From a virus, in IMG/VR virus record IMGVR_UViG_3300031788_000002, positions 103,482 through 167,481 of that record: a stretch of 64,000 nucleotides of DNA; one strand, written 5' to 3'. The notes beneath the pieces are model-generated. The model had not been told where the DNA came from. It saw nothing but the letters and a program-made list of their open reading frames with translations, and did not search any database. Of this stretch, positions 10,153-33,075 are shown in pieces (within the stretch, counting starts at the first letter, position 1; each line of letters begins with the position of its first letter). A program made the position numbers and the translations under genes.

Positions 10153-11432
10153 TGGGCCGCTACATCACCGATCCCCATACGGATGCGCGTACGCCGCTCG
10201 AGCGTACCAGCATGCGCAGTTCGTGGACGCAGCCCCACGGGGCTTCGCCCGCGTTTATTCACGAATCTCGCGTCTTAGACTTTAATTTGGCCACCTGGAC
10301 CGTCGATGTACGCTCTCAGTTTGACCAGAAGTTCTACCCGAACATTCAGGTTGCGGGCCCTTACCTTCATCCTAATCGCGGAGAAGGTTGGTCGGTTGTT
10401 CCCGAAGTGAACGCAAAGTGCGTGGTATGTTTACCCAGTGACGGGCCCCCGCCTTTTGTGCTGGCTTTCATCATGCCTATGGAGACCCCCGAGGATCCCT
10501 CCTCGAGCGCTGCGGCAGAAGACGCAGCGGATACCACAGGTACTAACCAGGGTGCGGTTTTCTCTGGAGGTCGTGCACGGGGTAAGCCCGGGGACATGAT
10601 ATGGCAAGGGCGGGACGGCAACTTCGTGATTATGCATCGCGGGGGCGTTCTCCAGGTGGGGTCGACGGAGCTCGCCCAGCGCATTTACATACCGCTCGGC
10701 AATATCATTACGGACATCAGTCAAAACTACGAGCATCACAATACTGGGGGTTCCATTAACTGGGGACTGTCCACAAGCTACACCGACGATAATCCTCAGA
10801 CCGAGTTTCGTCAGACGTTCCGGTTGTTTGCCAACGATGCCCAGGCGGATCTACGCATTGCTGTTGGGCAAGTGCATCAGCCTGTTCCAGAACCTTCGGG
10901 GGATGCAGGCGAGACCTCGAACAACACGGCGATGGGTGTAGGGGCCGACACTATCGTTGCTGAGTTCGTGATCGCACCGGCCGGCTTCAACGTGGAAGCG
11001 GGTTCGCCGGTGAGCGGCGTAGAGAACCTGACCAAGTTGAAGATGTTTTTTGACCGGTCAGGGTCTGGGTTCTTGCGCGCTGAAGCAAGCGTCAACATCC
11101 GCGTCAAAAATCAACTTCGTATTACGGCAGATCAGGGGATGACGCTGACCTCGGGTAAGTCACTGCAATTGCAGGCGACAGAAAATCTACGGTTGGTGGG
11201 AAGTACTGGGGTTCAGATTACGTCGGATAAGGGCGCGGTAACCATTAACGGAGGGGACACCCCCGTGGCCACCGTCGGCTCAGCGGTGAGCATTGTTATC
11301 GCAACGCCCGTACCTATTATCCTGAGCGCACCCGTACCGGGGACGCCAGGTGTCATCTCAGCGGGCGCGATGTTCACCGGCTTTATCACCAACGGATCCA
11401 GCACGGTGTTGGTCCCGGGGCCGCAAGGCTAA
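10152..11432 (+). CDS. baseplate spike / gpV-gp5-like protein
   Basis: N-terminal OB-fold-like segment (RVLDFNLATWTVDV...GEGWSVVPEVNAKCVV) and C-terminal short beta repeats (ITADQGMTLTSGKSLQLQATENLRLVG); TGATG overlap with RNAP. Confidence 0.65.
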   Translation: MGRYITDPHTDARTPLERTSMRSSWTQPHGASPAFIHESRVLDFNLATWTVDVRSQFDQKFYPNIQVAGPYLHPNRGEGWSVVPEVNAKCVVCLPSDGPPPFVLAFIMPMETPEDPSSSAAAEDAADTTGTNQGAVFSGGRARGKPGDMIWQGRDGNFVIMHRGGVLQVGSTELAQRIYIPLGNIITDISQNYEHHNTGGSINWGLSTSYTDDNPQTEFRQTFRLFANDAQADLRIAVGQVHQPVPEPSGDAGETSNNTAMGVGADTIVAEFVIAPAGFNVEAGSPVSGVENLTKLKMFFDRSGSGFLRAEASVNIRVKNQLRITADQGMTLTSGKSLQLQATENLRLVGSTGVQITSDKGAVTINGGDTPVATVGSAVSIVIATPVPIILSAPVPGTPGVISAGAMFTGFITNGSSTVLVPGPQG

Positions 11433-15882: not shown

Positions 15883-16147
15883 GAGCAAACTCCACGTGCT
15901 CTCTTGTGAAACGTACATGCACGGCGCGCCAGCCAAGCCCCAAAGCAACCTGTCGGATAATGGCGCGGATGGACGTGTGTAGGTCCTTGGGCAATGAGGC
16001 AATCTGAAGCTTGGCGTGGTGCTCGCGTTTCTTGTCGTCGGTATCGAGGGACCAGCCACCAGGAAAGTGAGGGCCGCCGGAGCTCAACCAGCGCCAAACT
16101 TCCTGAAGGGCCTCTTGGGGGTCGGCTGTTTCTTCTTGAGGTTCCAT
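15755..16147 (-). CDS. hypothetical protein
   Basis: 130-aa ORF filling the gap before terminase; its start shares CATG with the terminase start. Confidence 0.45.
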   Translation of the reverse strand: MEPQEETADPQEALQEVWRWLSSGGPHFPGGWSLDTDDKKREHHAKLQIASLPKDLHTSIRAIIRQVALGLGWRAVHVRFTREHVEFALKPYRVEVRQVQEAQREVFRQAARRKREGTRTNPEGGQTPAP

Positions 16148-18622: not shown

Positions 18623-19613
18623 GTACCCTCTAGTAGCACCTATGAGCCAGTACGATCTACCGCCGCAAACCCTGTTGCAACAATCCTCGGCGCGGCCTGT
18701 CAGCGGGGAAGAACTGGAGACATACGGAAAGCATGCGGCCGATGCTTACGGGCGGGGAGATTACGAAACCCTCAGCGAGGCCATTGTGGACACGGTGAAG
18801 ACCGCGGGTCTTTCTCCTGCGCAGGTTCAACGCGTGGTGGAGTTTACGAACACCGCGGCTTTTTTGACGGAGTTCAATAAGGAGGGCGCCGCAAGTAAGT
18901 ACGTTGTATTCAACGGAGGGCCGGCGCGCTTCAACGAGGTTATTCAAGACTTGAACGATGGGGGTGGGGGCACGGTGTTCGATCGGGGAATACTCGATTA
19001 CTCACACACCCCCGACGTGAAGACGGCGTCGCGGAAGCAACAGGCGTTGGAGAAGACGGCGGCGGCAGAAGCCGACGATGTCTTGGCGCGCGCTTTCCGT
19101 GTTGAATGCGCTGCGTCCCCTTTGCCTTACGCAAACCCCCTCGCGGATGTTCATGATCTTTGCGAGAAGCTGGCCGCGGCACGGGACGGGCACACCGCGC
19201 AAATAAATGAGCTCGAGCTTGATCTGAGCGCAGTGTCCGAAGAGATGTACCAGCACGTAAAACAGGCAGCCCTCGAGGGTGTTTCCCTTGGCTCGGTAGT
19301 GCAGGCGTGGGACTTGGCATTGCAACCTGACCCAGTCCTGGTCAAGGCGGCCTTTGCGCTGATGGGACCTCGACTTCAAGCCGACGTGTTCGGTTCGTGG
19401 AATGCACTGGGTGCCTCCTTTGAGAAAACCGCAGCGGTGGGGGCAATGGTTAACGCGGAACACCCTATTGTGGTGGCCTTCGATGCCTACTGCGACCTCG
19501 TTACCAAGCTCGCGCACCTGCGCGCGGCGCAGGGCGACATGCTGGCGGGCATCGATCAGCTTCAGGCGTTCGAACGTTCCGTAGCGCGTAACTACAGTGA
19601 GGTGGTGGCGTGA
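18606..19613 (+). CDS. head-associated protein with K-x-A motifs (start may be 18621 or 18642)
   Basis: KHAA, KTAG, KTAS, KTAA, KLAA, KQAA; coiled-coil segments. Confidence 0.7.
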   Translation: MRSWDMYPLVAPMSQYDLPPQTLLQQSSARPVSGEELETYGKHAADAYGRGDYETLSEAIVDTVKTAGLSPAQVQRVVEFTNTAAFLTEFNKEGAASKYVVFNGGPARFNEVIQDLNDGGGGTVFDRGILDYSHTPDVKTASRKQQALEKTAAAEADDVLARAFRVECAASPLPYANPLADVHDLCEKLAAARDGHTAQINELELDLSAVSEEMYQHVKQAALEGVSLGSVVQAWDLALQPDPVLVKAAFALMGPRLQADVFGSWNALGASFEKTAAVGAMVNAEHPIVVAFDAYCDLVTKLAHLRAAQGDMLAGIDQLQAFERSVARNYSEVVA

Positions 19614-20116
19614 ACCCGTTGGATCTGTACTTGCTGAGCAAACACGCTGATGCGCCACAAGCAGGGGGTTGGGGGCCAACGCTGCGCAATGCTGCCATTC
19701 AAACCGGCGTGGGGTTGGCGGTAGCGGGTGCTCCCCTGGCCGCCAGTCATGTGTACAACGCGGTAACCAAGCGCCATCACTTCAACAAAATGATGGAGCA
19801 CAACGAAGACTTGCAGGCGTACCACGCGCAAGACCCGGCGCGCTTCAATCAGCTCTTCACGTCATTGCACGGCATGAACCCCGAGTTCGCCGCCGACCCT
19901 ATTGTGGCGGGTTCTTACATGCGCCAGATGGCCGCCCACCCCGCAGGCGCGGGCAAAGCCTTGGTTGAAGCACGCGGTGCAGCCAAAGCGTTGCCCACGC
20001 ATCCTTTGTCTGACGTGATGAAGGGGATGGCGCCCACGATGGGTAAGGCCATTGCAGAGGGTACGGCGCCCAAGGCGCGGGCGGCACAAGTTCCTCCTGA
20101 TGTAGCCACGGGCTGA
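19610..20116 (+). CDS. head-associated protein
   Basis: GTGA overlap; KHA at the N-terminus followed by a hydrophobic Gly/Ala helix. Confidence 0.7.
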   Translation: MNPLDLYLLSKHADAPQAGGWGPTLRNAAIQTGVGLAVAGAPLAASHVYNAVTKRHHFNKMMEHNEDLQAYHAQDPARFNQLFTSLHGMNPEFAADPIVAGSYMRQMAAHPAGAGKALVEARGAAKALPTHPLSDVMKGMAPTMGKAIAEGTAPKARAAQVPPDVATG

Positions 20117-20125: not shown

Positions 20126-21718
20126 GTGATTAAAGTCAGTACCTTCCTTCATCAGAACGCGTTCGGCTACACCGCCATACCGCTTTTCGGTGCGGCGGAT
20201 CGGGAGTTCGAAAAGAACGCCAGCGCGCACTTGTTGACGCCTGTGGCGCAGTACATTGCGTCTTTGCGCCCGATGAACAGCGCTCAATATGTTTTGGTGA
20301 ACGCCCTAGGCGCGGGGGAGTACTTCGGTTCGAATATAAATGGCGATAACTTTCCCGAAGCAGGATTGATCCATTGTCCCGCGGGATGGACGGGTACGCC
20401 TGGCGTCGATCGCGCCTTAGCCGCGGATTGGCCTTACGGCTTTCCGACGTTCTACAACGCGTACCCCTTCGCGCATCACAAGAATAAGGACGCCAGCCGC
20501 GCGTATGGGGTTGTGGAGCTCGCCGCGTGGAACGACCACATGAAGCGGGTCGAATTGGTGGTGCGCGTCGATTACGACAAGTGCCTTCAGTACGGCGGTG
20601 TTCCTGTTTGGGACAAGCTGAAAGCAGGTCAGTACGCCGACGTCTCCATGGGAAGCCGCGTCCCTTTTGATACCAGTTCCATCACGTTGGATTGGAACGC
20701 GTACAACGACGCTAAGGCAACGTACGACCCGAAGAAGCACCGTTCCCCCGGCCAAGCTGTCCTCGAGGTGCATAAGAAGACGCCCATTAAAGGGCTAAGC
20801 ATCACGCGTGACGATTACGACGAGTACTGCCTCAAGTACATGAACCGTATTCTGCCCGATGGGCGGAAGGTGTTCGTCTGGAATGACTACCCGCGGTTCT
20901 TCGACATCAGCTTCGTCTTTATTGGTGCCGACCGTACCGCGAAGGTCATGGTGTACATCGCCCGGGAGGGGTCCTTTCCCGAAGCGATGCAAACCAAGAC
21001 CGCCTCTGTCGCCGAAGGGTTCTCTGGGTTTCTTGAGAAGACGGCCAGCGTTAAGGGAGCGGGGCTTAAGCGGGCGGAAATCGATAAAGAGGTTACCCCC
21101 ATTCCCGATGCGGCCAAGGCCATCCCTCTTCTGACGAAGAACGAACCGCCCCTTCCCCACGACTTGTTGAACGCCTTGTCTGCGGTACCCACAGCGAGCG
21201 CACTGAGTACAACCAGCGGCCTTGGGATGGTTCTGCGCCCTCAAGAATTTCAGCGCATGGTTCTTGTGCGTGCCGGCCAGGGTTCTCTGGCGGACAGCTT
21301 GGATAGGCAGAACAAGGTATTTCCTTCTGGAGAACCTCCTTCATCGTGTGGTTTATCTCCGGAGTTGTTTCTTCCGGCGCTGGCGCGCTTACTTCTTCCC
21401 TTGTTCGATCAGCGCACCGCACTCGCTCCCGCTGTTGAGCGCCGCGTTGTTATTCTTAGCTCAGGTTCTGCGGATCCCGTGAGCGCACCTACTTCCGATA
21501 CCTCGGAGCTTCTTCGTAAGATTGGTGCGGCCTACAATGGGTATCGTGAACAACTTCTGGAGATAGCCCCCTACAGCCAAAGCTTGATCCAGAAAGTAGC
21601 GACAGCTAGAAACCACGACCTAACAAAGCTTGCTGAGTGTTCCCCAGAAGATGTGTTTACCCCCCTATCATTCTGTTACTTACGCGACGCGTATTTGCAT
21701 ACTTGCCGCGCAGGATGA
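20126..21718 (+). CDS. prohead (maturation) protease, HK97/assemblin fold, with C-terminal extension
   Basis: NGDNF, AHHKNKD (catalytic His candidate), DVSMG (catalytic Ser candidate), FFDISFVFIGAD; followed by KTAS...KTAS; lies upstream of scaffold and capsid genes. Confidence 0.78.
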   Translation: MIKVSTFLHQNAFGYTAIPLFGAADREFEKNASAHLLTPVAQYIASLRPMNSAQYVLVNALGAGEYFGSNINGDNFPEAGLIHCPAGWTGTPGVDRALAADWPYGFPTFYNAYPFAHHKNKDASRAYGVVELAAWNDHMKRVELVVRVDYDKCLQYGGVPVWDKLKAGQYADVSMGSRVPFDTSSITLDWNAYNDAKATYDPKKHRSPGQAVLEVHKKTPIKGLSITRDDYDEYCLKYMNRILPDGRKVFVWNDYPRFFDISFVFIGADRTAKVMVYIAREGSFPEAMQTKTASVAEGFSGFLEKTASVKGAGLKRAEIDKEVTPIPDAAKAIPLLTKNEPPLPHDLLNALSAVPTASALSTTSGLGMVLRPQEFQRMVLVRAGQGSLADSLDRQNKVFPSGEPPSSCGLSPELFLPALARLLLPLFDQRTALAPAVERRVVILSSGSADPVSAPTSDTSELLRKIGAAYNGYREQLLEIAPYSQSLIQKVATARNHDLTKLAECSPEDVFTPLSFCYLRDAYLHTCRAG

Positions 21719-21813
21719 TACAACTTTCCTATTAGGCACACGCCAGCGTGGAGAGGGGTAGCGCCCTTCGAGGAACACGTGAACACGTCCCACTACTTCG
21801 GAGAAACGCATCC

Positions 21814-22578
21814 ATGATGAACGCCACGCTCGCGGCCATGTACAATACGGCAGGGTACGGAGCGCAAACCCGTGAACAGGAGAAGGTTGCACACCTTGAG
21901 CTGTTCGCCAAAACGGCCGCGGCCAATGGGATTGACCTGACGGCGCTTTCTCAAGGTGATCGGGTCGCGCTCTACAACGAGTTCACCCAGAAGCTGGCTG
22001 AAGAGGGGGGCGAGTTCCCCCCGAAGGGTGAAGAGCACGAGGAAGAGTCCGAAGAGGAAGAGTCCGAAGAGGAAAAGAAGAAGCGCGAAGAGAAGGACAA
22101 GGAAGAGGGCTCCGAGGAAGAGAAGAAGGAAGCCCAGGCGCAGTTCGCAGCCATGCGTCAGTGGCAAGAGAAGAACGCCGAGGTCGATTTCCTTGGCCGC
22201 CGTATGGCGCACGCATTCGAAGACGAGCGCCGGCAGATTCAAGCTGCGAAGACGGCGTCGGCCAAGCCGGGAGCGGCGCAACCGGCAGTGCCGGCCGTTG
22301 CTCCCATGCCGAAGACGGCGTCGGTTAAGCAGCCCGCGACGCCGTTTGATACCCAGGCCGCGCGTCTTGCGGTGAAGCTGGCTTCCGACGCCAAGCTCAA
22401 TACGAACTCGGTCATCGACAAGCTGAACGCGTTGCTGACCCTCGGGGTACCCCCGTTGGACAAGACGGCATCGGTCGCTTCAGCGAGTGATTACACCCAC
22501 ACCCTTAACGTGCGGGCCCTCGAGCTGTTGGAAGCGTCGGGGTACCCGGTCAACTGGAACGCGGTCTTCGGGCAGTAA
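21814..22578 (+). CDS. scaffold/internal head protein, acidic, K-x-A rich
   Basis: GGAG SD before ATG 21814; Glu/Lys tract; about nine KxA sites. Confidence 0.7.
   Translation: MMNATLAAMYNTAGYGAQTREQEKVAHLELFAKTAAANGIDLTALSQGDRVALYNEFTQKLAEEGGEFPPKGEEHEEESEEEESEEEKKKREEKDKEEGSEEEKKEAQAQFAAMRQWQEKNAEVDFLGRRMAHAFEDERRQIQAAKTASAKPGAAQPAVPAVAPMPKTASVKQPATPFDTQAARLAVKLASDAKLNTNSVIDKLNALLTLGVPPLDKTASVASASDYTHTLNVRALELLEASGYPVNWNAVFGQ
22039..22074 (+). repeat. 15-bp tandem repeat (GAGGAAGAGTCCGAA x2.4) encoding EEESE
   Basis: Read directly from sequence. Confidence 0.8.
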
Positions 22579-22585: not shown

Positions 22586-24832
22586 ATGACACGGAGCAGA
22601 AACAAGTACGCGGACGCTTTGGGATCGGGAACACCGGATCCCAGTACCGCCCCGGCACGTTCTGCGTCTGTGCCTCAAATCGCTATCGCGAACACCCCGG
22701 CCCCTGGTCAACGGGGGCCTGTGGGTCTTGGCGGTCGCACATCGTATTCGCGTGTCAATACGGGAACCCCACCCATCCCCGACATGGGAACCAGTGCTCA
22801 GAAGAGCCAAGCTCCTCGGGGGATGGAGTTCCTACCCAAGACGGCAGCCCAGGAGAATTATCACATGACGACTACGGTCGCGGGACGACCCGCGCTGCAA
22901 GAGATTATCAAACAGGCCATGGAAGGGGCGGCTGCTCGGGTTGACATCAGCCTGGAGTCGGCGCGCCAAATCGCTAATGCTGGGGGAACACCCCCCGCGG
23001 TTGAGAAAACCGCTTCGGCACTTCCTTCCGTACGTTCCTTGCCAACGGATTTGACCACGAAGTTGGCCAGCGCCCTTGATTACGTCGCGGTTCAGATGGA
23101 TCCCAAGCTGGCAGCCATCGACATCGACGCCAAAACCACCGACGGCGTCGGCCCGGGGGAAGGACCCAATGCGCTTGATGTGACGCACGCGATTAGCAGC
23201 GACGCTCCCCTTCAGCCCAATGCGTCGGGAAAGGCGATTGAACAACCGCCCAAAAACCCGGCACAGCAAAAGGATCCAACCCGTCCGGCCGACCCGGGTA
23301 CGGGGCTCGAGACCAACGACAGTACCGAGCACAGGGAGCAGCCGATCGAGCCCATCCCAAATCAAAAGACCACGCTCTCCAATGAGCAGGCCAAAGAGTC
23401 GTCGGCGTACGCCAACAACCTGCTTGCTCTTGGGCTGGCGCGTGTTGAGTACGACACCAAAGGCCAGCCGCAAATTGTTAAAGCAGCTGGAATCGGGGGC
23501 GCTATTACGGGTGCTCTTGGCGGCGGTGCTCTTGGCGCAGGGTTGGGTGCCTTGGCCGGGCATGCGCTGGGTATCGGCGCGGGGACCGGCGCGAAGTGGG
23601 GCGCTACCCTCGGTGCCGCCGGCGGTGCCCTTCATGGATCAGACGTGCTTCAAGGCGTGGGCGCTCCCCCTGCCGCCGAAGCGCAACCCAAGGTTGCCGC
23701 GGAGGAAACCACGCTTGAGCGCAAGGGGCGCAAAGGCGGTGCATTGGCCGGCACGATTGCAGGCAGTGTCGGTGGGGAACGCGCGGGGAGAGCTCTGGCC
23801 GAAGTGCTGGGCGCGGGTGCTCTTCGAAGTGGTCTTGCCCGTGCAGGCGGTTCTGTTCTCGGAGCGGGTATCGGTCATCACATCGGTGGGCGCCTTGGGC
23901 GCGCGGCCGGCGGCGCGGCGGAACATCGTCTCGACATGATCGACCCCAAGGGGAAGAAGGAAGCGTCGGCCGCGCTCAAGAACCTGGCGCTTCGCATGGC
24001 GAAGACCGCCTTGGATCCGGAAATGATGACTCCCGAACAGATCGATGCAGCGCAAGCCTACGGAGCGGCGCGCGCGCCACAAGTTCATGGCGCGTTGGTG
24101 GGCGGTGCTCTTGGGGCTCTCGGTGGGGGTGCCGCGGGATATTACTTTACACCTCTCAACTTTGCCGGGAAGATGATGGGTGGCACCTTGGGCGCGATTC
24201 ACGGTGGTTTGGCAGGAGCGGATATCGGCTCAGCCGTTGACGCGGCGCGGATGACTCCTGAACAGCACGCGCAGATGACCTTGAACGCGGAAGATGCCGC
24301 GCAGGCTAACAAGCAAGCGTCAGTGTACGCCCGCAATCTTCTGGCCCTCGGGCTGAAGAAGCAGGCGGAAGATGCCATCAACCCGGCGCAGATCAGCGCG
24401 GGTAAGATCGACGACATCGGCGTCAATTCTCCTGACGGTGCCACCCCGGCGGGCGTTGGTGTTCCTTCGGAACCGAGCGACGTCAATTCACAGAAGCGGC
24501 TCATCGAGTCGAACCTGGCCGCCATCGGGTACACCCGGCGGGAAGCCAAGAGCGATCCGAAGAAAGACCTAGGCGCGGTGCTCAATGAGCCGGCCCTGTC
24601 CGCGGAACATGATCGTACGCTGAACGAAGCGTTCGATCACACGGAGGAAGCGGGCGCCAAGATTGGTAGCGCTCAGACGTTGAAGATTGCTGCCGCGCGC
24701 GCGGTTTTGAACAAGCTCGCGCAGCAACAGGTGGTCGGCAAGAAGACCAAGAAGAGCATGATGGGAGGCGCTGGTGGCGCACCCAATACCCCTCAAGCCG
24801 CCAGCGGATTTACCGCCGGCGCGCAGATGTAA
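22586..24832 (+). CDS. internal head polyprotein-like protein with glycine-zipper segments
   Basis: ATG 22586 after the upstream stop; second in-frame ATG 22865 with AGGAG; three GxxxG-rich blocks, each preceded by KxA. Confidence 0.72.
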   Translation: MTRSRNKYADALGSGTPDPSTAPARSASVPQIAIANTPAPGQRGPVGLGGRTSYSRVNTGTPPIPDMGTSAQKSQAPRGMEFLPKTAAQENYHMTTTVAGRPALQEIIKQAMEGAAARVDISLESARQIANAGGTPPAVEKTASALPSVRSLPTDLTTKLASALDYVAVQMDPKLAAIDIDAKTTDGVGPGEGPNALDVTHAISSDAPLQPNASGKAIEQPPKNPAQQKDPTRPADPGTGLETNDSTEHREQPIEPIPNQKTTLSNEQAKESSAYANNLLALGLARVEYDTKGQPQIVKAAGIGGAITGALGGGALGAGLGALAGHALGIGAGTGAKWGATLGAAGGALHGSDVLQGVGAPPAAEAQPKVAAEETTLERKGRKGGALAGTIAGSVGGERAGRALAEVLGAGALRSGLARAGGSVLGAGIGHHIGGRLGRAAGGAAEHRLDMIDPKGKKEASAALKNLALRMAKTALDPEMMTPEQIDAAQAYGAARAPQVHGALVGGALGALGGGAAGYYFTPLNFAGKMMGGTLGAIHGGLAGADIGSAVDAARMTPEQHAQMTLNAEDAAQANKQASVYARNLLALGLKKQAEDAINPAQISAGKIDDIGVNSPDGATPAGVGVPSEPSDVNSQKRLIESNLAAIGYTRREAKSDPKKDLGAVLNEPALSAEHDRTLNEAFDHTEEAGAKIGSAQTLKIAAARAVLNKLAQQQVVGKKTKKSMMGGAGGAPNTPQAASGFTAGAQM

Positions 24833-24843
24833 AAGGAGCGGCC

Positions 24844-25236
24844 ATGGCAACCCAAAAGATGGATCAAGTCAAAGTCGCTCGCGTCATTAAGGATGCGGCG
24901 GTCGCCTTGCGTACCGTGTCGCAAGAACGGGACGCATTGCAAACCGAGAACGCCAAGTTGGCTCAGGCCAACCGGGTGTTGACGACGCGCATGCAGGCCG
25001 AGAAGGTAGCGATGGACATGCACGACAAGGGTGTGCACACCGCTATGCCTTTCGCGGACCTGGTCGACACGCTCGAGAAGCGTGCGCATCAAGACCCGAA
25101 GGGCTTTGAGGTTCTCAAAGAAGCCGTCAACCTTACGGGTCCGGACATGATGAAGACCGCGTCGGTGGGCACTACAGCCGCTGCCCATCTCGGTGCTTCG
25201 GATTTCGAACAGTACATCCTCGGAGACATCGGCTGA
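24844..25236 (+). CDS. small coiled-coil head/scaffold protein
   Basis: AAGGAG SD; coiled coil; KTAS near the C-terminus. Confidence 0.75.
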   Translation: MATQKMDQVKVARVIKDAAVALRTVSQERDALQTENAKLAQANRVLTTRMQAEKVAMDMHDKGVHTAMPFADLVDTLEKRAHQDPKGFEVLKEAVNLTGPDMMKTASVGTTAAAHLGASDFEQYILGDIG

Positions 25237-25276
25237 CCGCGGCGCTTCTTCAACAGACTGCACTAGGAGAATTTCA

Positions 25277-25819
25277 GTGACCACACTTCGCGAAAACTTC
25301 AAGCCGGTTTCCGACGTTATGCCCATTGTTCGAAGGGACTGGATCCTTGCGGACAAGACCCTGGCCAACCCGTCCAACCCGCTGTCGCTCATCGATGGCG
25401 AGTGGATGACGCTGAATGGCGTCGGCCAAATGATCCGCGCGGTTGACATCACGCAGACGTTGGGGACGTCGGCGCTCAATGTGCTGTCGTGGCCCTTGTG
25501 GGCGGAGAACGGCCGTTATGATGTGCAGGCTATAGCCGACTGCAAGATGCCCCTTCTATGGCTCAACGCCTGGGAGTTCGAGACGCGCATCTACGATCCG
25601 GCCGAGGTCTCGGGGGCAAACGGCGCGCCCATCGCCGCCATGCTGCAACCCCTCAAGGTGGCCAGCATTTCGGTGGGTGGCGTGTACGGGGTACGGACCC
25701 TGAGCGGCCTCGTGGGCCATGGCGGTTCGAACGACACCGACCGCATCGTTGGGTACGTCACCAAGTTGCCCGCTGCCAACAACGGTTGGCTGCGTCTTCG
25801 CGGAGGCAACCTCTTCTAA
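25277..25819 (+). CDS. putative capsid decoration/cement protein
   Basis: AGGAG plus GTG 25277; beta-rich small protein immediately before the MCP. Confidence 0.6.
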   Translation: MTTLRENFKPVSDVMPIVRRDWILADKTLANPSNPLSLIDGEWMTLNGVGQMIRAVDITQTLGTSALNVLSWPLWAENGRYDVQAIADCKMPLLWLNAWEFETRIYDPAEVSGANGAPIAAMLQPLKVASISVGGVYGVRTLSGLVGHGGSNDTDRIVGYVTKLPAANNGWLRLRGGNLF

Positions 25820-25862
25820 GCCGTGTGGTGAACAACGGCCTACTTAACTAAAGGAGAATCAG

Positions 25863-26984
25863 ATGGCATCGGCACGGCAAGTCAACGATCTGTTCAACAC
25901 ACGCCTCGGCGAACCCGGGGGCAAAGAAAAGCTCGCCCAGTTTGGCGGCTCTTACATTCGCGATCGTCTTCGCGAGGTTTCGTTCGTTCGCAAGATCGTG
26001 CCCCCGGAGCAGGTTACGCGTACGGACTGCCAGCGTTCAACGCGGCATGACACGCTGGTCAAGATCGTCGACATCGAGCCCAAGAGCCGGGCCATGGCGA
26101 TCAGCTTCCGGGGACAGCCCACGGCCCGGTTTATCCGGGGTGAGCGCGCCGAGGTAGCTTTCTTCACGATCAGCTCGGAGGTCTTTCAGAAGACCGAACA
26201 AGAGCTACTAGCGTATGAGATGCCCATCACCAAGATCATCGAGGAGAATTCGGTGAAGGACATCCAGGAGATCGAGGATCGCGAGTTCGTCATCCATATC
26301 GAAGCCGCGGTTCAGGCGCTTCAGCAGGAAGCCAACGGTGGAACGATCGTGTCGTTGAACGCTTCAGCTCTTCAAGGCAGTGCGCCTCCGGTCGAGTTCT
26401 CGGTTCGTAAGGGGGAGCTTGCGCGCGCCGCCAATACGAACGACGCGGTAATCCGCCCGGTTCAGCGCAAGGACATCGTGGAGGGCTTCAAGATCATCGA
26501 CGGAAGACGCCTGCGGTGCGCACGCTTCCTTCTGACCGAAACTGACTTCGACGATGTCCTGTCCTGGACCGTGGAAGACACCGGCGATCGGATTCAGTCG
26601 GAGACCACCGTCGACGGGTACAAGTACAATTTGCTCGTGGGCCGCCCGTACATCCGGACTGTGAAGACCGACATCCTGCGCCGTGGGAACATCTACTTCT
26701 TCGCGGAACCCGAGTTCTTCGGGAAGTTCTACGTGCTTAACCAGACCAAGTTCTACATCGACAAGGTCGCCAACACGATCACCTTCCAGGCATGGGAGGA
26801 CATCGCGATGGCGGTCATCAACATCGCCAGCGTTGGCAAGATCGAGCTCTACTCGGCGGACGCTACGGCCAACGATGAGGACACGCTGCTCGACAACTTC
26901 ATTCCGGTGGCTGAGGATAGCCTTGGCGCCATCAACAACCGCGTGAACGAAGGGCTCAAATTCCCCCAGATCGTCGCCAATTAA
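25863..26984 (+). CDS. major capsid protein (HK97 fold)
   Basis: AAAGGAG SD, strongly C/G-ending codons, 373 aa, YIRDRLREVSFVRKIVPP motif, position after protease/scaffold, strong terminator downstream. Confidence 0.82.
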   Translation: MASARQVNDLFNTRLGEPGGKEKLAQFGGSYIRDRLREVSFVRKIVPPEQVTRTDCQRSTRHDTLVKIVDIEPKSRAMAISFRGQPTARFIRGERAEVAFFTISSEVFQKTEQELLAYEMPITKIIEENSVKDIQEIEDREFVIHIEAAVQALQQEANGGTIVSLNASALQGSAPPVEFSVRKGELARAANTNDAVIRPVQRKDIVEGFKIIDGRRLRCARFLLTETDFDDVLSWTVEDTGDRIQSETTVDGYKYNLLVGRPYIRTVKTDILRRGNIYFFAEPEFFGKFYVLNQTKFYIDKVANTITFQAWEDIAMAVINIASVGKIELYSADATANDEDTLLDNFIPVAEDSLGAINNRVNEGLKFPQIVAN

Positions 26985-27020
26985 CCTGAGGGAACTCGCG
27001 TAGTTCTGTCGGCCCGGATT

Positions 27021-27057
27021 AAGAGGGCACCGGCGCCGGTCGTCGGTGTCCTCTTTT
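27021..27057 (+). terminator. rho-independent terminator after MCP
   Basis: AAGAGGGCACCGGCG-ccggt-CGTCGGTGTCCTCTT stem followed by T run. Confidence 0.75.
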
Positions 27058-27065
27058 GCGTTTCA

Positions 27066-27074
27066 AGGTAGGCT
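27066..27074 (+). promoter_or_regulatory. -10-like element (aggTAGGCT) 6 nt before ATG
   Basis: Directly after the terminator; no SD before ATG 27081. Confidence 0.5.
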
Positions 27075-27080
27075 ACGATC

Positions 27081-27575
27081 ATGCCGCAAGATGTGTTTTT
27101 CATTTTCAATACCACCCGGTCGATTCACACCGGCTCTGTGCGCCGGGCACTGCTGGGTCCTGAGAGCAGCACCAAAAACCTTTTCTTGGCGGGGGGTCTG
27201 GTCCGTGTTGTTCGGGGCCGCCCCTCTCCGGTAACCGGCGACTTTCTTCGAAAGCACATTCATGAAGTGCAAGACAAGGAGCGCAAGGGACTGGTGCGCG
27301 TGTACAACGCCCGAAGCCAACGGGTGGATCTGACAACCCTCGCGGCGGTTACCGAAGACGCTCTGCGAGAAGACGCAACCCTCGAGGACGTTGTGCCTCC
27401 TGAGGTACCTGAAGTACCCACGGAAGAAGGGCTTACTTCTACCCAGGAAGTCGCCGTGGATACGGCGGAGCTTTCGGTCGAGGAAATTTTTGAAGAAGGC
27501 ACGACGGAAACTACACCCGTTGCGTCAGAAGAAGTGCACACGAGCGCGGGCAGTCGACGGCGTCGACGAGGGTAA
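27081..27575 (+). CDS. hypothetical protein with acidic tail
   Basis: 164-aa ORF. Confidence 0.65.
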   Translation: MPQDVFFIFNTTRSIHTGSVRRALLGPESSTKNLFLAGGLVRVVRGRPSPVTGDFLRKHIHEVQDKERKGLVRVYNARSQRVDLTTLAAVTEDALREDATLEDVVPPEVPEVPTEEGLTSTQEVAVDTAELSVEEIFEEGTTETTPVASEEVHTSAGSRRRRRG

Positions 27576-27580
27576 GCGCT

Positions 27581-28096
27581 ATGGCCAACGGTGAAAAGCT
27601 GCAGGGCGTTCAGGCGATGAGCCAAACGATGCAGGCGTTTGTTCAGACTGTGCGGCTTTTTACGCGGGATCACCCTCAGCTCAATCGTTTACTGACCGGG
27701 GAAGAGTCCACGGATCGCATCATTGCGTGGGCAGTGATGGACGCCCTTTCGGATTTCAATGGGACGCCCCCTTTTTTGGGAGCGTTCAGCCTTGAAGATT
27801 TGCTTCAATGGCATCAACAGGCGCTGCTCACACGCATGACCACGTGTTCGCTGCTTGAGTCCGTAGGGCTCCTTCAAACGCGAAACCACATCAATTATTC
27901 AAACGGCGGCATCAACGTAGGCGTGAACGATAAAACGCCGCTCATCATGAACTGGCTCCAGTACTTCAAAGGGACGACGGAGCAGATGAAGCAGCGGGTT
28001 AAGGTCTCGCTGAACATCGGGCAGATTATCGGCCCCATGAACACCGGTTTGCATTCAGAACTCTGGAGTGTGAACGCTTCGTACCTCAGTTACTAG
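27581..28096 (+). CDS. putative head-tail adaptor/neck protein
   Basis: 171-aa helical protein after MCP; INYSNGGINV segment typical of connector proteins. Confidence 0.55.
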   Translation: MANGEKLQGVQAMSQTMQAFVQTVRLFTRDHPQLNRLLTGEESTDRIIAWAVMDALSDFNGTPPFLGAFSLEDLLQWHQQALLTRMTTCSLLESVGLLQTRNHINYSNGGINVGVNDKTPLIMNWLQYFKGTTEQMKQRVKVSLNIGQIIGPMNTGLHSELWSVNASYLSY

Positions 28097-28127
28097 TGGT
28101 AGAGTTTGCATTACCTAAGGAGCACCC

Positions 28128-28583
28128 GTGTCTCTTCATACCTATGAGTTCGACAACCTAAAGGACATGGAGTTCTTCCTTCAGGGAGGGGTTTCGGGCG
28201 GTAAAGAGGTTGTTACCCAAAACGGGCGCATCTACGGGTTGAACGGTTCGACCCTGATCTTTACGTTGCCCGCAGGCACGGTACAGTTCTCTGATGTTTT
28301 GGAGCAGGGGCTGACGTTCCAGCAGATTTCTCAGCAGATCGCTGCTGTACTCCCGGCGCTCGCCACCTTTTGGCGCGACAAGTACATTCACATCCTGCAG
28401 AAAGCATTGGGGGGTGGGATTTCCCTGAGTAAGAGTGGAACCGCGAATCCTTTCTTCGGGTTCAGCTCCGCAACGGACGCGATCGGTACCTTGTTCAACG
28501 GTCCTTCGGGGGCTACGCCGCGCTACATCGACAGTAGTGGTAAAGCACGGCTCGAGGGCTACTACGTGGTAGTGGAGTTCTAA
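28128..28583 (+). CDS. hypothetical virion protein
   Basis: AAGGAG SD plus GTG. Confidence 0.65.
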   Translation: MSLHTYEFDNLKDMEFFLQGGVSGGKEVVTQNGRIYGLNGSTLIFTLPAGTVQFSDVLEQGLTFQQISQQIAAVLPALATFWRDKYIHILQKALGGGISLSKSGTANPFFGFSSATDAIGTLFNGPSGATPRYIDSSGKARLEGYYVVVEF

Positions 28584-30863
28584 ATGACGAACAGTTTTGA
28601 GCGAGCGCTTTTCGGCGAAGACGCGCAGATCCCCCTCCACATGGCAAGTGCTTACTTCGTGTCCATGAAGCAGCCCCTTCAGGTCAAGGTGGCGCGCGTT
28701 TCGACGAAGACCGCAGGGTGGCAAGACGCGCCGGATGAGACCGGGCTTCTCGAAGGGCAATTTGAAGTACCCCTCGAGTTCGCGGTGCAGCTTATGGGTA
28801 CGTGCGCCATGCACTTGCTACGGCTGATGACCGCAGGGCTCATCTACTCGAAAAGCATTCGAGGCCCCTACGCCGGTGAAGTTCTACGCGTCATTTGTGA
28901 CACGGAGTGGGATCACAAGAACGCCTTTCAGTATTTGGTGGAGCGCATGGCGGTCTTGGCCGGTGCACCGCACATCCCAGAATCGGAGATGCCCCCGTCG
29001 AGTACCGATCCTCTCGCGGTAGCGCAACGTATGATCCGCGCTGAACAAGAAATGATTCAGAGCTATCACGAGTTGTGCGCAGTCCTCGGGCACAACCCGA
29101 TGAAGTTCAAGATCAAGTCGTACATGGGCGAATGCCAGGCCCACTTGGATAAGTATTGGCGGGCACTGCCACCCGAGTATGGGAACAAGCCTATGATTCC
29201 TACGCCGCCCGTGATGCTCGAGCGGCACGAGGAAAATGAGACCCCCGAACAAGAGGCCATCGAAAGCCCCGAGTTTCAACAGGCGGAAGAAGCCGCGGGC
29301 GTCGAACAACCTGGTGAAGACGAAGGGGCCGAGGATCAAGAGCTCCCTGAAGGTGGGGAGGACACGCCGCAAGAAGCGTCGGAGGCGCCTTCGGAAGAAG
29401 CTGTAGAGGAACCCGCACCGCCAGACCAAAAGACAGCCAGTGGTTTTTCCAAGGTCGCTGCCTTGATGGCGAAGTGGGCCAAGGAGAACGCAACCGATGC
29501 AGAGCTCAAAGAGACCGGGCGGCAGCGGGCGGTGACCACCATTTCTGCGGAGCACCACCGGGAGTCCGCGCGCCGCGGGGAGCGGGCAGGGCGAACCCTC
29601 GGTATGTTAGGGGGTGCAGCGGCCGGGGGCGTGCTTGGGCATGCGCTCGGTAAAGGCCATCCGATGGCGACGCTAGGGGGCGCCGCTCTGGGTGGCGCCG
29701 CGGGCCATCGGGTGGGGGGTGAGCTCGGAACCGAGGCGGACATTGCGCGGCACAAGAAGGCGAACATCGCCAAGTTGGCTATGCGCATGGTGCGTTCTTT
29801 AACGAAGACCGCTGATGAGCTTCAGGGCATCCCCGATGCGGAAGCCCCCATGGCTTCCCCGACCGATGATCCGGAGCTGACCCCGGTCAATTACCTGCAA
29901 GCCGAGCAAGTGGGGCAACAGTTTCAGGATCGAAACGAGGCCAACTTCTACCGTTCGAAGCTGCACGCGACCGAGCAGCAGGTGGCGCAAGCGCAGCAAG
30001 AAGCGCAAATGCAGGTGCAGCAGATGCAGCAGGCGGCGGCTCAAGCTCAGGCTGATGCCGCCTCGGCAGCGCCGCGCATCAAGTCCGCGCTTGATGAAGC
30101 GGTCAACGCCAAGAACGACGCGCTCAAGCAAATGGAGACCGCGTCGCGCATGCGGATCGCGCAGCAGAACCTACGCATGCAATTGATGGAGTTGGCATCC
30201 CAAGATCCCGATGCCCAAGCCGCCATGGATTTGGCGCAAAGTACGGGGCAGGGAACGCCCATGGGCACACCGCTCGGAACGGTGCCCCCGGCCGCTCCCG
30301 ATGCTGGCTTAAATGCGGGCCCACCGCAGCCTCCGGCTCAAGGGGATTCGGGTGGGGGCCCCCCGGGGGGGCCCGCCGGCGCGGCCCCTGATGCGCAAAC
30401 CGCCCCTGGCGCGGCGCCGCCCGCGGGGTCGCCTGACATGAATGCCACTGCGGGCGGCCCGCCGGGGCCTGACCCGTCCATGGCCCAAAGCCTGACGCAG
30501 GTGGGAAAGACGGCGTCGGTGCTTCGTCGCGGGTTGCAGAAGCACGCAGCGCTCGGCGGCGCTTTGCTGGGCGGCTTGGTGGGCGGTGCGGACCAAGCCT
30601 ACCGAACCCATCAGGGAATTCAGGGGGGCCTTGACCCGGTGCAAAGCCGCATTGACGCCCTGATGGGAAGCCAAGACGGCAGCTATGGCAGCGCCGCCGC
30701 CTTGGCCATGGCTAAGACCCAGTTGGCTCAGCGGGAGCTGGCCTTGGCGCATCCGACCCAGGCCATGCTGCGCAATACAGGGAAGGGCGCTGTGCAAGGG
30801 GCGCTGCTCGGCAGCGGTATCGAGGACAAGGGCCGCCAACTTCAACGACTGCTGACGCAGTAG
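28584..30863 (+). CDS. multi-segment head protein: ferritin-like domain, glycine zippers, Q/P-rich linkers
   Basis: EWDH...LVERMAVLAGAP...AEQEMIQSY...ECQAH four-helix pattern; KxA-delimited segments. Confidence 0.72.
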   Translation: MTNSFERALFGEDAQIPLHMASAYFVSMKQPLQVKVARVSTKTAGWQDAPDETGLLEGQFEVPLEFAVQLMGTCAMHLLRLMTAGLIYSKSIRGPYAGEVLRVICDTEWDHKNAFQYLVERMAVLAGAPHIPESEMPPSSTDPLAVAQRMIRAEQEMIQSYHELCAVLGHNPMKFKIKSYMGECQAHLDKYWRALPPEYGNKPMIPTPPVMLERHEENETPEQEAIESPEFQQAEEAAGVEQPGEDEGAEDQELPEGGEDTPQEASEAPSEEAVEEPAPPDQKTASGFSKVAALMAKWAKENATDAELKETGRQRAVTTISAEHHRESARRGERAGRTLGMLGGAAAGGVLGHALGKGHPMATLGGAALGGAAGHRVGGELGTEADIARHKKANIAKLAMRMVRSLTKTADELQGIPDAEAPMASPTDDPELTPVNYLQAEQVGQQFQDRNEANFYRSKLHATEQQVAQAQQEAQMQVQQMQQAAAQAQADAASAAPRIKSALDEAVNAKNDALKQMETASRMRIAQQNLRMQLMELASQDPDAQAAMDLAQSTGQGTPMGTPLGTVPPAAPDAGLNAGPPQPPAQGDSGGGPPGGPAGAAPDAQTAPGAAPPAGSPDMNATAGGPPGPDPSMAQSLTQVGKTASVLRRGLQKHAALGGALLGGLVGGADQAYRTHQGIQGGLDPVQSRIDALMGSQDGSYGSAAALAMAKTQLAQRELALAHPTQAMLRNTGKGAVQGALLGSGIEDKGRQLQRLLTQ

Positions 30864-30872
30864 GAGACCATC

Positions 30873-31754
30873 ATGCTGGATGCATTTCTGAACGTGTTGG
30901 TGAAGAAAGCTTCGGACAAGAAAACCGAAGATGAGTTGACGGCGCATCTGACGCGCTTGCCTCTGAACGAGATTCAAAAGATTGCGCGGCTGGGCTCGGT
31001 TAAGAAGGCATTCTGCGGCGACGGTGACGATGGGAAGTGGCTCGCGCGCTACGAAGACACGGCGCTGTATGAGAAAGCGTTGGCGCTTGAGGAAGAGCTG
31101 CTCAAGATCGAAGCGCAGCGCATTGAGCGTCGGTTGAAGCCGGAACCCGAGATCGACAACCTCTATGCCCAAGAGGACATGGTTCGGTTGAAGAAGCGGC
31201 AACTGGACCTCGAGTTGTCCAAGCTGCGCGCGGGGGGCGAGGCGGAGCCGGCGGCAAACGATCTGGAAGAAGAAAACGATCTGGAAGAAGAGGAAGAGCC
31301 GGCAGCGGAAGACGGAAGCATGAAGTCCGCGCATTTGGCCTTCGTGCGTAAGCTGGCGGCGTGCTCGGATCCCACCCAGGGGCTGAAGGCGCCCGCGGTA
31401 AAGCGACCCCCGGTTCCTTCGATGGCCGTGAAGACAGCGAGTGTCCTGCGCCCCTTTCTTCCGGCCTTCCCAGGACTGCCCAAGGAAGCGTGCTTCGATC
31501 TGGCGGGGCGAGCGTTGGCGCACGCAGAGGCACAGCAAGCATCTTTGCGCGCCAAGCATGCGGGCATCGGCGGCGCTATCAAGGGCGCGCTGCGCGAAGG
31601 GGCCATTCAAGGGGGTACGGGTGCAGCCGGGGGCGCCCTTGGAGGCGCATTGTTTGGTGGTGTTGGGGCTTTACCCGGGGCTGCCATCGGAGGCGCCGGC
31701 GGCGCTATCAACGGTATTATTTCAGGCGCAGCCAAAGGTTTTAACGACAAGTAG
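30873..31754 (+). CDS. head-associated protein ending in a glycine zipper
   Basis: AGGAG SD; KHA followed by GIGGAIKG...GGALFGGVGALPGAAIGG. Confidence 0.72.
   Translation: MLDAFLNVLVKKASDKKTEDELTAHLTRLPLNEIQKIARLGSVKKAFCGDGDDGKWLARYEDTALYEKALALEEELLKIEAQRIERRLKPEPEIDNLYAQEDMVRLKKRQLDLELSKLRAGGEAEPAANDLEEENDLEEEEEPAAEDGSMKSAHLAFVRKLAACSDPTQGLKAPAVKRPPVPSMAVKTASVLRPFLPAFPGLPKEACFDLAGRALAHAEAQQASLRAKHAGIGGAIKGALREGAIQGGTGAAGGALGGALFGGVGALPGAAIGGAGGAINGIISGAAKGFNDK
31256..31291 (+). repeat. perfect 18-bp tandem duplication (AAACGATCTGGAAGAAGA x2)
   Basis: Read directly from sequence; encodes NDLEEE twice. Confidence 0.85.
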
Positions 31755-31764
31755 GGCTCCCTAA

Positions 31765-32667
31765 ATGCCGGGTTTGGCGATTACTAAAGCGCGCGTTCTG
31801 TCGTTGTCCCTCGACTACAACCAGTTAACTTGGGAAGTCGGAGATACAGCGGAAGACCTTCTTGATTACACCTTTCTTGTTCTGCGCGCTGAGTCCGCCT
31901 CGGGCCCCTTCGACCCCATTTCGCAGGAGCTCGAAGACGCGTTCTTGTTCATCGACAACCTGGTCAAGGTTGGGAATATCTACCGGCAGTACCACTACAA
32001 GATCCAGATCCGTAATAAGCAAACCGGGGAAGTTAAGCTTTACGGACCCTACGCTAAGACCCCCGAGCCGACGCTCATCGCTCAGGAATTGCGGCTGCAT
32101 CTGAACCTGCTGATGCACGAGTTCATCGGGCGCCGCTGTTGGCTTTTACCCGTGCGTACGTTTGGGCAGCGTTGTGCAGATTGCTGGAACCCCCGCCTTC
32201 AAAAGCGGAAGTTCAGTGGTTGTCGTAGCTGCTTCGATACGTCGTTTGTACGGGGGTACCACAAGCCTATTGAAATTTGGGTCAGCATTGATCCAACACC
32301 GGCCAATCAACAGCCGACCAACTCGGGTAAGCTTCAGCAGCAATCCACCACAGGGCGCATGTCGTTTTACCCACCGGTAAAACCCGATGACGTGCTGGTT
32401 GAACCCGAGAATATTCGGTGGACCGTGCGTACTATTTCCACCACGCAAGAACAGCGCGCGGTGGTGACGCAAGAGCTTCAGATGCGGCGTGCTGAGACGA
32501 CGGACATGGAGTACCTCATCCCCTTGGATTTGGGGGCGCCCATGCAAGACTTGTTTTATACCCCTGCTCGCAATTACACGAACCCGACCACACTGACGGA
32601 TTTGCCTAAAGACGACATCGACTTCGAGGGGATCTATTCCCTGTACCCCCCGTGGTACGGTCGTTAG
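31765..32667 (+). CDS. putative neck/head-closure protein with Zn motif
   Basis: N-terminal FN3-like beta pattern; CADC...CRSC; position between head and tail genes. Confidence 0.55.
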   Translation: MPGLAITKARVLSLSLDYNQLTWEVGDTAEDLLDYTFLVLRAESASGPFDPISQELEDAFLFIDNLVKVGNIYRQYHYKIQIRNKQTGEVKLYGPYAKTPEPTLIAQELRLHLNLLMHEFIGRRCWLLPVRTFGQRCADCWNPRLQKRKFSGCRSCFDTSFVRGYHKPIEIWVSIDPTPANQQPTNSGKLQQQSTTGRMSFYPPVKPDDVLVEPENIRWTVRTISTTQEQRAVVTQELQMRRAETTDMEYLIPLDLGAPMQDLFYTPARNYTNPTTLTDLPKDDIDFEGIYSLYPPWYGR

Positions 32668-33075
32668 GTGATGAACGAGCTTTTCTACGCTGCTTTCGCT
32701 GATGAGCTCGTGAAGATTGCCGAGGCGGATGCCGTAACAGACGCTGCGTCGGCGGTGAATGAAGGGCAAACGCCACCCCCTTATCGAGAACACCCGGCGT
32801 TGACGCTGGCGAAGGGGGTCGGTGGCTACGCCCTTGGCGCGGGGGCAGGGTACGTGGGTATGCACGGCCTGAACCGCGGTATCCAGGCGTTGGGGGGTGA
32901 TGGGTTACCCCTCGCCGTAATGAAATACGGCCCCCCGGTAGCGGCGGGCGCCGCGGGTCTTGGGTTTGGGTTGTTGCAGCACCGTATGATGGATCGTCTA
33001 AAGAAGTCGGGGGCACCCCCGCAGAACCCCCTGACGGAGCCACACGGTGGACTCGATCAAGACCCCGAAATTTGA
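32668..33075 (+). CDS. small glycine-zipper protein with N-terminal AFADELVKIA leader
   Basis: KIA at about residue 16-18, then two GxxxG helices. Confidence 0.65.
   Translation: MMNELFYAAFADELVKIAEADAVTDAASAVNEGQTPPPYREHPALTLAKGVGGYALGAGAGYVGMHGLNRGIQALGGDGLPLAVMKYGPPVAAGAAGLGFGLLQHRMMDRLKKSGAPPQNPLTEPHGGLDQDPEI

Follow-up and report, generated by a model that had tools for sequence, protein, structure and literature searches.

Glycine-zipper proteins in the head-gene region of an uncultured ~190-kb phage: putative substrates of a probable herpesvirus-like prohead protease and candidate membrane-active cargo

The cut motif of the T4 prohead protease is (L/I)-x-E, and that of phiKZ and SPN3US is (S/A/G)-x-E. 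Ejection proteins of the giant phage SPN3US are processed by the prohead protease (PMC5694885, PMC7411985, PMC10052503). Here, we describe glycine-zipper proteins that resemble these systems and that are encoded in a 64,000-nucleotide stretch, the window (positions 103,482 to 167,481 of IMG/VR virus record IMGVR_UViG_3300031788_000002), which makes up the end of a viral contig of 167,481 bp (89% complete). The source is an uncultured phage of ~190 kb, and the window covers its head-gene region. As in T4 (IPI-III and Alt) and the ejection proteins of phiKZ and SPN3US (PMC5694885, PMC7411985, PMC10052503, PMC9026906), the proteins have putative short N-terminal leaders ending at a protease motif, the same motif stands on scaffold-like proteins, protease, and the N-terminus of the major capsid protein (MCP), a T4 gp21-like protease is encoded nearby, and the predicted mature parts are basic. 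Unlike in those phages, the motif is K-[T/V/I/L]-A with S or A as the next residue, no sequence homology to their proteins appeared in Pfam or PHROGs, and the putative cargo would consist of repeated glycine-zipper hairpins. Compared with known capsid-targeted, processed internal and ejection proteins, what appears to be new is the cut motif, the repeated and duplicable zipper hairpin, and a herpesvirus-like layout of the protease.

Head-stored ejection proteins that build a trans-envelope conduit are known from podoviruses. Those of N4, gp51 and gp52, form channels upon insertion into bilayers (PMC13434306), and transmembrane helices are predicted in T7 gp14 and gp16 (PMC8954989). The T7 (gp14/gp15/gp16), P22 (gp7/gp20/gp16), and N4 (gp51/gp52) proteins are soluble or semi-soluble before ejection and contain predicted membrane helices, a likeness that we propose for the zipper proteins. 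They differ from the latter in their fixed stoichiometry and conserved sizes, whereas the zipper proteins come from a probable myovirus and vary greatly in copy number, with no homology detected between the two groups; Pfam and PHROG scans of the zipper proteins gA-gD (below) returned no podovirus ejectosome family, although remote homology is possible. Outside phages, the closest relatives in kind are the SlyB/PF05433 lipoproteins (7ojf, 7ojg), which have the same Gly/Ala/Leu composition and marginal hydropathy. The glycine-zipper domain of SlyB is described as transmembrane, and the protein forms 11-mer rings around lipid nanodomains (bioRxiv 10.64898/2025.12.22.696046). Unlike SlyB, the phage proteins have no lipobox, signal peptide, or periplasmic beta domain, and their hairpins lie inside large head proteins. 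Soluble, delivered proteins can also use GxxxG motifs to permeabilise or cross a target cytoplasmic membrane, as do Tde1, a type VI secretion system effector whose glycine zipper is required for membrane permeabilisation and entry into prey (PMC10240207), and the type VII secretion system effector LXG-T2 (PMC12955049). We propose a likeness to these as well, although the delivery machine is a different one, homology is absent, and no toxic domain was identified in the zipper proteins. A search of the open literature on glycine zippers combined with phages or virions yielded no paper describing glycine-zipper virion proteins.

The zipper-bearing proteins and their main elements are the following (window positions):

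19610-20116, plus strand: p168, a small protein with the leader ..DLYLLSKHA-D and then a Gly/Ala-rich hydrophobic helix (outside the span covered by the initial annotation)
22586-24832, plus strand: gA, 748 residues from the ATG at 22586, with 8 K[TVIL]A sites
23483-24220, plus strand: zipper block of gA, with six cassettes at residues 333-385, 417-468, and 533-578
28584-30863, plus strand: gB, 759 residues, with 7 K[TVIL]A sites
29595-29708, plus strand: zipper hairpin of gB, the cassette closest to a known family (PF05433 when excised; SlyB alignment)
30543-30590, plus strand: C-terminal zipper of gB, HAALGGALLGGLVGGA, which follows KTA-SVLRRGLQKHA
30873-31754, plus strand: gC, 293 residues, with the leader MLDAFL..L.K.A
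32668-33075, plus strand: gD, 135 residues, with a leader helix to K16-I-A18, a P/E-rich spacer, a hairpin, and a charged tail

All seven strings on which the initial annotation had built its case were found, in place, in plus-strand open reading frames (ORFs). Cassettes were defined as runs of at least 14 residues, none of them charged, in which Gly and aliphatic residues each make up at least 30%. Six such runs occur in gA, arranged in three pairs, and five in gB-gD (three in gB, one long in gC, and one in gD). None occurred in the protease, scaffold-like, capsid, or other head-module neighbours within the window, and cassettes were restricted to few of the ~190 proteins encoded by the genome. 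GxxxGxxxG was counted 25 times in gA, 13 times in gB, and 7 times in gC, where shuffled sequences averaged 1.9, 0.8, and 0.35, and none of 2000 shuffles reached the observed counts, so that the zippers claimed earlier are beyond chance; for gD, the count alone was not significant against shuffles. Within cassettes, Gly-Gly pairs were enriched at lags 4 and 8 (observed/expected 1.45-1.72) and depleted at lags 2 and 6 (0.5-0.9) and 10, a pattern seen in the window proteins together with 62, 40, and 31 relatives of gA, gB, and gC, respectively. Since the Gly spacing has a period of four, these are true glycine zippers rather than generic Gly-rich tracts. In gA and gB, paired cassettes are separated by 1-3 residues, as in a two-helix hairpin. 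Residues 293-399 of gB align with the SlyB hairpin (7ojf residues 55-106; E 5.5e-4), and residues 325-385, when excised, match PF05433 (Glycine zipper 2TM) with 33.1 bits (cut-off 24.2). These results support the identification of the cassettes as true glycine zippers of the SlyB/Pfam 2TM type.

Outside the window, 7 kb upstream (genome 96520-97689; L085:2521-3690), lies the gene for another zipper protein, which is basic, has 389 residues (20% Gly), and contains 4 cassettes, 16 GxxxGxxxG motifs, and the leader ..HEALQKEA-FLGG.

The second feature of these proteins is a K-x-A motif, which they share with the following genes of the head module:

20126-21718, plus strand: g530, 530 residues, probable prohead (capsid maturation) protease, whose N-terminal ~290 residues have an assemblin/T4 gp21 fold in the model
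21748-22578, plus strand: g276, acidic and scaffold-like; K[TVIL]A occurs 7 times in it (25 per 1000 residues)
24844-25236, plus strand: g130, a short, scaffold-like coiled coil; K[TVIL]A occurs 4 times in it (31 per 1000 residues)
25863-26984, plus strand: HK97-type MCP (phrog_2522, E 3e-14)
25929-25937: putative cut site of the MCP N-terminal propeptide, GGKEKLA-QFGG, with the motif at residues 23-25 (K-x-A at residues 22-25 in 53 of 54 relatives)

Across the g530, g276, gA, g130, gB, and gC families, KTA was enriched 6.7-fold over composition, KIA 5.4-fold, KVA 5.0-fold, and KLA 3.9-fold, while KAA (1.2-fold) and KHA (1.7-fold) were near expectation. The residue following the motif Ala was S in 29%, A in 24%, and G in 12% of cases, and KTA[SA] was enriched 10-25-fold in these six families (~15-fold in that of g276). 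The motif that is statistically real is, therefore, narrower than K-x-A, namely K-[T/V/I/L]-A, mostly with S or A behind it. No KTA occurred in the MCP, g164, g300, and g293b families, and the g208 family had 0.09 per 1000 residues. A K-x-A fell within the first 45 residues in 39/39 members of the g530 family, 26/26 of gC, 40/42 of g130, 31/34 of gA, 23/26 of gB, and 53/54 of the MCP (KLA at residues 23-25 in the window), as against 0/56 of g208, 0/55 of g171, 1/25 of g300, and 1/21 of g1052. The motif is thus carried by the putative cargo, the scaffold-like proteins, the putative protease, and the MCP N-terminus, and shell and tail proteins are nearly without it. In gD, p168, and gC, an N-terminal leader ends at the motif. 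From this distribution we infer that K-[T/V/I/L]-A-[S/A] is a cut site, with cleavage probably after the Ala, and the position of the motif in the MCP suggests that a 25-residue N-terminal propeptide is removed there. A strict regular expression for a common N-terminal leader retrieved just 2 proteins genome-wide; therefore, a single shared leader consensus is not established.

Two proteins encoded far from the head module are likewise dense in K[TVIL]A, with 9 sites (genome 94258-95694; L085:259-1695) and 6 sites (genome 3523-5145; L086:524-2146), and are candidates for extra protease substrates or cargo.

The relation between the two features is looser than had been proposed. The initial annotation placed the cassettes directly downstream of K-x-A, yet among 138 family proteins K-x-A, tested type by type, lay within 12 residues upstream of a cassette at 0.55 times the frequency expected from uniform placement, and a second test, of any K-x-A at several distances from cassette starts, found no enrichment. 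Since neither test showed enrichment, we dropped direct adjacency as a rule. In the window, K-x-A abuts three of ~7 cassette clusters (KAA-GIGG, KHA-ALGG, and KHA-GIGG), the rest being 12-34 residues away, and the three abutting sites use the non-enriched forms KAA and KHA. The abutting KHA of gB and gC was not conserved in alignments, which are unreliable in these variable regions, while gA has conserved K-x-[A/G] positions at the borders of its three cassette blocks (alignment A1). Nor would the products be short peptides, as the same annotation had supposed. With the enriched motif K[TVIL]A, the predicted zipper fragments are 104, 107, 115, 104, and 117 residues long, together with gA pieces of 195 and 227 residues, giving a range of 104-227. 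Four of the five fragments of 104-117 residues have an isoelectric point (pI) of ~10, and the gD piece has a pI of 5.7. Family-wide, the median net charge was +4 for fragments with cassettes vs. -1 for others (Mann-Whitney p ~7e-8, on data that are not independent).

Each protein embeds its zippers in a different architecture. In gA, conserved N-terminal (~300 residues) and C-terminal (~180 residues) parts flank a hypervariable zipper block (alignment A1), which is bracketed by the duplicated motif S(A/V)YA(N/R)NLLALGL. The order in gB is a ferritin-like domain, an acidic linker, the SlyB-like hairpin (338-375), a Q-rich coiled coil, a P/G-rich tract, and the C-terminal zipper (654-669). Its residues ~54-207 (window 28743-29204) form a ferritin-like four-helix domain according to an ESM Atlas model (TM 0.78-0.86, depending on the target) and Pfam Ferritin (E 0.009); this domain has an ExxH motif (TEWDH) and recalls the ferritin-like cargo of encapsulins. 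The gC protein consists of a conserved N-domain, an acidic linker, KTA-S at residue 189, and a C-terminal zipper region at ~231-287 (alignment A4); it has 14 database relatives, cassettes occur in 29 of 35 family members, and an ESM Atlas feature search gave no usable match. A distance of 30-45 residues separates the leader K-x-A of gD from its zipper. AF2 models gD (overall pLDDT 73) as a leader helix at 4-27 and a Gly/Ala-zipper hairpin (pLDDT 74-86), whose helices, 43-74 and 82-115, meet in a G-D-G-L-P turn. Across 17 diverse relatives, no columns are invariant except K16, G57, and G61, A18 being conserved in at least 90% (alignment A7), and relatives have a syntenic small protein at the gD position. 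For p168, ~40 relatives share the leader NP-x-[DE]-[DE]-[YF]-L-x-x-K-x-A together with the G/A-rich helix, and relatives have a cassette at residues ~34-60.

The putative protease, g530, has well conserved N-terminal ~290 residues, in which H83, H117, H118, S174, and H216 are invariant in 22 relatives. Its AF2 model (pLDDT 76) superimposed on T4 gp21 (5jbl) in VIA-align with a Z of 8.2 and a root-mean-square deviation of 2.8 A over 133 of 164 residues, and on the proteases of six herpesviruses with a Z of 5-7.3. In Foldseek, the T4 gp21 and herpesvirus protease families ranked first, yet with non-significant E values (0.2-0.4), and a PDB profile search by sequence returned nothing useful. The protein has a homolog in gp222 of the cultured Salmonella myovirus Arash (E 9e-28). 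Behind the protease domain stand KTA-S sites at residues 291-293 and 305-307, and the C-terminal extension has KVA and KLA at 27-38 residues from the C-terminus. Precursors of the herpesvirus pUL26 type self-cleave at Ala-Ser release and maturation sites, and g530 is laid out like such an assemblin-scaffold precursor: a protease domain, two KTA-S sites, and an extension with K-x-A near its end. The predicted sites also agree in having Ala at P1 and mostly Ser or Ala at P1', and differ in the predicted need for Lys at P3; identity over the fold match is just 13-16%. Judging by the model, the head module probably encodes an assemblin-fold prohead protease in g530. A portal assignment for g530 was rejected, as the fold favours a protease, and g208 (25280-25819) was ruled out as the protease, having no invariant His or Ser and no PDB profile match; g208 may be a decoration protein. 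The g530 gene encodes 935-1223 residues in some relatives (L005, L017, L049), and these long versions may contain inteins.

That the cassettes are modular was also part of the initial annotation, and this held when relatives were compared. Among 26 distinct related genomes, the number of cassettes per genome varies from 3 to 20. The gB-gD interval has 3-9 cassettes in 26/26 genomes and is never without them, while the gA interval has 0-14 and none in 15/26. The expansions of the gA block are limited to the window's own clade, in which close relatives carry 3-14 cassettes. In one relative (L005, 6612-7232), the gA homolog contains a recent tandem duplication of 336 nt (112 residues), with copies that are 85-92% identical. 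The duplicated module comprises zipper hairpins ending in KEAS..RKT[S/A], and the duplicated unit therefore contains the cut motif; its size matches the fragment sizes predicted for the window. This is direct evidence that the number of cassettes grows by tandem duplication of a 112-residue module, which was seen in L005 only; Tandem Repeats Finder detected no long-period DNA repeats in the zipper genes of the window.

Taken together, gA, gB, gC, gD, and p168 are most likely internal head (cargo) proteins. Since they look like substrates of the phage's own prohead protease, they are probably inside the prohead, and we consider their status as head-internal protease substrates likely. According to the mechanism that we favour, the zipper proteins would be synthesised in soluble form, because zipper helices are only marginally hydrophobic, and would be incorporated into the prohead alongside the scaffold-like proteins. 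There, g530 would cut at K-[T/V/I/L]-A, probably after the Ala, removing short N-terminal leaders and acidic linkers. The mostly basic fragments of ~100-230 residues, each with one to three SlyB-like hairpins, would stay behind, presumably held by the DNA, and would later leave with it, insert into the host envelope, and oligomerise via their GxxxG faces. This could help to open or line a path across the cytoplasmic membrane, or it could permeabilise that membrane. Besides the SPN3US, N4, T7, and Tde1 proteins named above, weak PHROG matches of the zipper pieces to segments of tape-measure and tail-associated lysin proteins count among the precedents for this mechanism. Packaging, cut position, retention, ejection, and membrane action are all inferred. 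Granted that the proteins are head-internal protease substrates, membrane activity after ejection is modestly probable; the complete chain, from processed head cargo to basic zipper fragments that travel with the DNA and oligomerise in the host envelope, is possible and falls narrowly short of probable. The earlier interpretation thus stands with respect to zipper type, resemblance to protease substrates, and modularity, and is not supported as worded with respect to adjacency to the cut motif and short peptides.

The distant relative Arash (OQ632216) offers a parallel. Its gp220, gp223, and gp225 have 31-35 K-x-A-[S/A] per 1000 residues vs. 0-6 in Arash tail proteins, and gp224 is a basic Gly-cassette protein of the head module. 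These proteins and the g530 homolog gp222 are annotated merely as 'structural protein'. In a mass spectrometry of virions, gp220-gp225, including gp224, were detected (PMC10585845).

Several observations weigh against this mechanism. The Arash virion proteome is not a stringent one, since it comprises 116 proteins with ribonucleotide reductases among them (PMC10585845). For the best 19-residue segments of the cassettes, Hessa deltaG ranges from +3.6 to +8.9 kcal/mol and the Kyte-Doolittle maximum from 0.9 to 1.45, and the check for transmembrane helices suggested by the initial annotation thus placed them below the usual thresholds, yet in the same range as the SlyB hairpin (Hessa +4.4, Kyte-Doolittle 1.51). 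Such marginal hydrophobicity would permit soluble synthesis and packaging, which is a permissive argument, not a positive one. The Pfam threshold was passed by the gB hairpin only, and only when excised: whole gB scored just 18.5 bits against PF05433, below the cut-off of 24.2, gA 520-590 scored 24.4 bits against PF13488 (Gly-zipper_Omp; cut-off 25), and the other cassettes were well below. The gD model had no PDB fold match, and its ESM Atlas matches were all below TM 0.45. The fold match of g530 is moderate and comes without a superposition of catalytic residues. Motif counts were drawn from related sequences and, hence, are not independent, although the split between families is still clean. 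Finally, the plasticity in copy number, together with the many cassette-free gA homologs, fits better with an accessory or filler role than with a channel of fixed stoichiometry.

The last point also fits an alternative in which the zipper proteins serve only as scaffold, core, or inner body, the zipper helices packing against one another inside the prohead in the assembly core or in a body that spools the DNA, and the pieces then being expelled or remaining as inert structural or charge-neutralising filler, with no action on the host membrane. The location of gA between protease and MCP is the usual place of scaffold genes, and the cut motif is common to the zipper proteins and the acidic coiled-coil scaffold-like g276 and g130. 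The loss of cassettes from gA in 15/26 relatives, the basic charge of the cassette fragments, which would suit DNA binding as in the T4 internal proteins, and the marginal hydrophobicity also agree with it. On the other hand, SlyB/2TM-type zippers with period-4 GxxxG characterise membrane-embedded hairpins. Scaffolds described so far consist of charged coiled coils rather than of uncharged, Gly/Ala-rich helices. Since the gB-gD interval always keeps its cassettes and the GxxxG of gD is invariant, selection appears to act on the zipper itself and not on bulk. We regard this alternative as unlikely, though far from negligible.

A role of gD and p168 in the membrane of the infected cell (as holin, pinholin, or superinfection-exclusion proteins) and not as virion cargo, with a merely coincidental N-terminal K-x-A, is very unlikely. 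In favour of it are the small size of both proteins, the class II holin-like arrangement of gD (two predicted helices and then a charged C-terminal tail), and the glycine-zipper packing of pinholin transmembrane domains. However, the helices fall short of the hydrophobicity that ordinary membrane insertion requires (Kyte-Doolittle maxima of 1.04 for gD and 1.33 for p168; Hessa deltaG +7.2 and +6.6), no feature of either family is better conserved than its K-x-A leader, a motif that also marks the protease, scaffold, and MCP N-termini, and both genes lie among head genes with no endolysin or spanin adjoining.

The prospect that gB is a tape measure protein, a tail component with zippers as its membrane-inserting end as in T5 Pb2, is more remote still. 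The gB protein is long, partly coiled-coil, and encoded downstream of the MCP after three small genes, and g171 showed very weak P2 gpE-like matches. When the zipper pieces were compared with PHROG, they matched segments of tape-measure (phrog_794, E 0.028) and tail-associated lysin proteins weakly. These matches are restricted to the zipper segment, however, and gB also has a ferritin-like N-domain, acidic and P/G-rich low-complexity tracts, and, as in the head proteins, K[TVIL]A sites (7). In addition, the length of gB varies from 474 to 982 residues among relatives whose MCPs are 70-90% identical, the genes for the tail fibre and other large proteins are ~50 kb away, and scans of the neighbouring genes identified no tube or sheath gene beside gB. 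Lastly, functionless low-complexity Gly/Ala tracts from replication slippage, for which the short GC-rich DNA repeats and recent duplication in L005 and a genome of 55-63% GC might speak, can hardly be credited when period-4 Gly spacing is held across divergent relatives, G57 and G61 of gD are invariant, cassettes occur in so few of the ~190 proteins, and the gB-gD interval never loses them.

The phage itself belongs to a large uncultured family that is distantly related to Arash. In IMG/VR, the MCP has 253 relatives (70-90% identical), many of which lie on contigs of 185-195 kb, and gene order near the MCP was kept across 80 fetched loci. All cultured relatives are distant, being Arash, the nearest, and three Vibrio phages with MCP identities of 26-28%. 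The GC content of the genome is 55-63%. A search with gA (tblastn) against 50,697 phage records gave no match, the g171 profile had no match in the PDB, and Pfam and PHROG scans of most neighbouring genes were uninformative. The region also holds a terminase gene:

16146-17921: large terminase (TerL; phrog_675, E 5e-53)

The product of window 10152-11432 has a weak match to DUF2345, the C-terminal spike region of VgrG (E 5e-4, below threshold), which hints at a contractile-tail spike protein adjoining the head genes. From this match and the cultured relative Arash, the phage is probably a myovirus. An ORF of 1132 residues (genome 97686-101084; L085:3687-7085) contains a LAGLIDADG_3 domain (E 6e-7, above threshold) and is probably an intein or homing endonuclease within a large gene. 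An ORF of 2515 residues (window 2605-10152), which the initial annotation labelled a single-chain beta-beta' RNA polymerase, starts with MAYLNPKEA-F, like the NP..K.A leaders of p168-type proteins. The most abundant protein of the Arash virion proteome is the RNA polymerase beta subunit (PMC10585845). Because of the p168-like leader and this abundance, the putative polymerase may be packaged in the virion.

Little is understood of how large myoviruses bring DNA, and in some cases large proteins, through the cytoplasmic membrane, and in uncultured large phages the majority of the 'dark matter' head genes lack an assigned function. At its furthest, the present interpretation would make the zipper modules an undescribed class of virion-delivered, protease-released membrane-remodelling proteins, which would form SlyB-like rings or pores for the passage of large-myovirus DNA and possibly of a packaged RNA polymerase of 2,500 residues, with tandem duplication adjusting the number of modules as phage and host envelope defences compete in an arms race; this is speculative, and we consider it improbable as a whole. 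Since Arash has a homologous protease, head proteins rich in K-x-A-[S/A], and one Gly-cassette protein, the idea is directly testable there. If true, a widespread ~190-kb family, as represented by the 253 MCP relatives, would gain a signature for ejection proteins in the form of a K-x-A leader plus a GxxxG hairpin, a phage prohead protease with herpesvirus-like Ala-Ser specificity would be defined, and the glycine-zipper hairpin would be a portable, duplicable module for membrane insertion.

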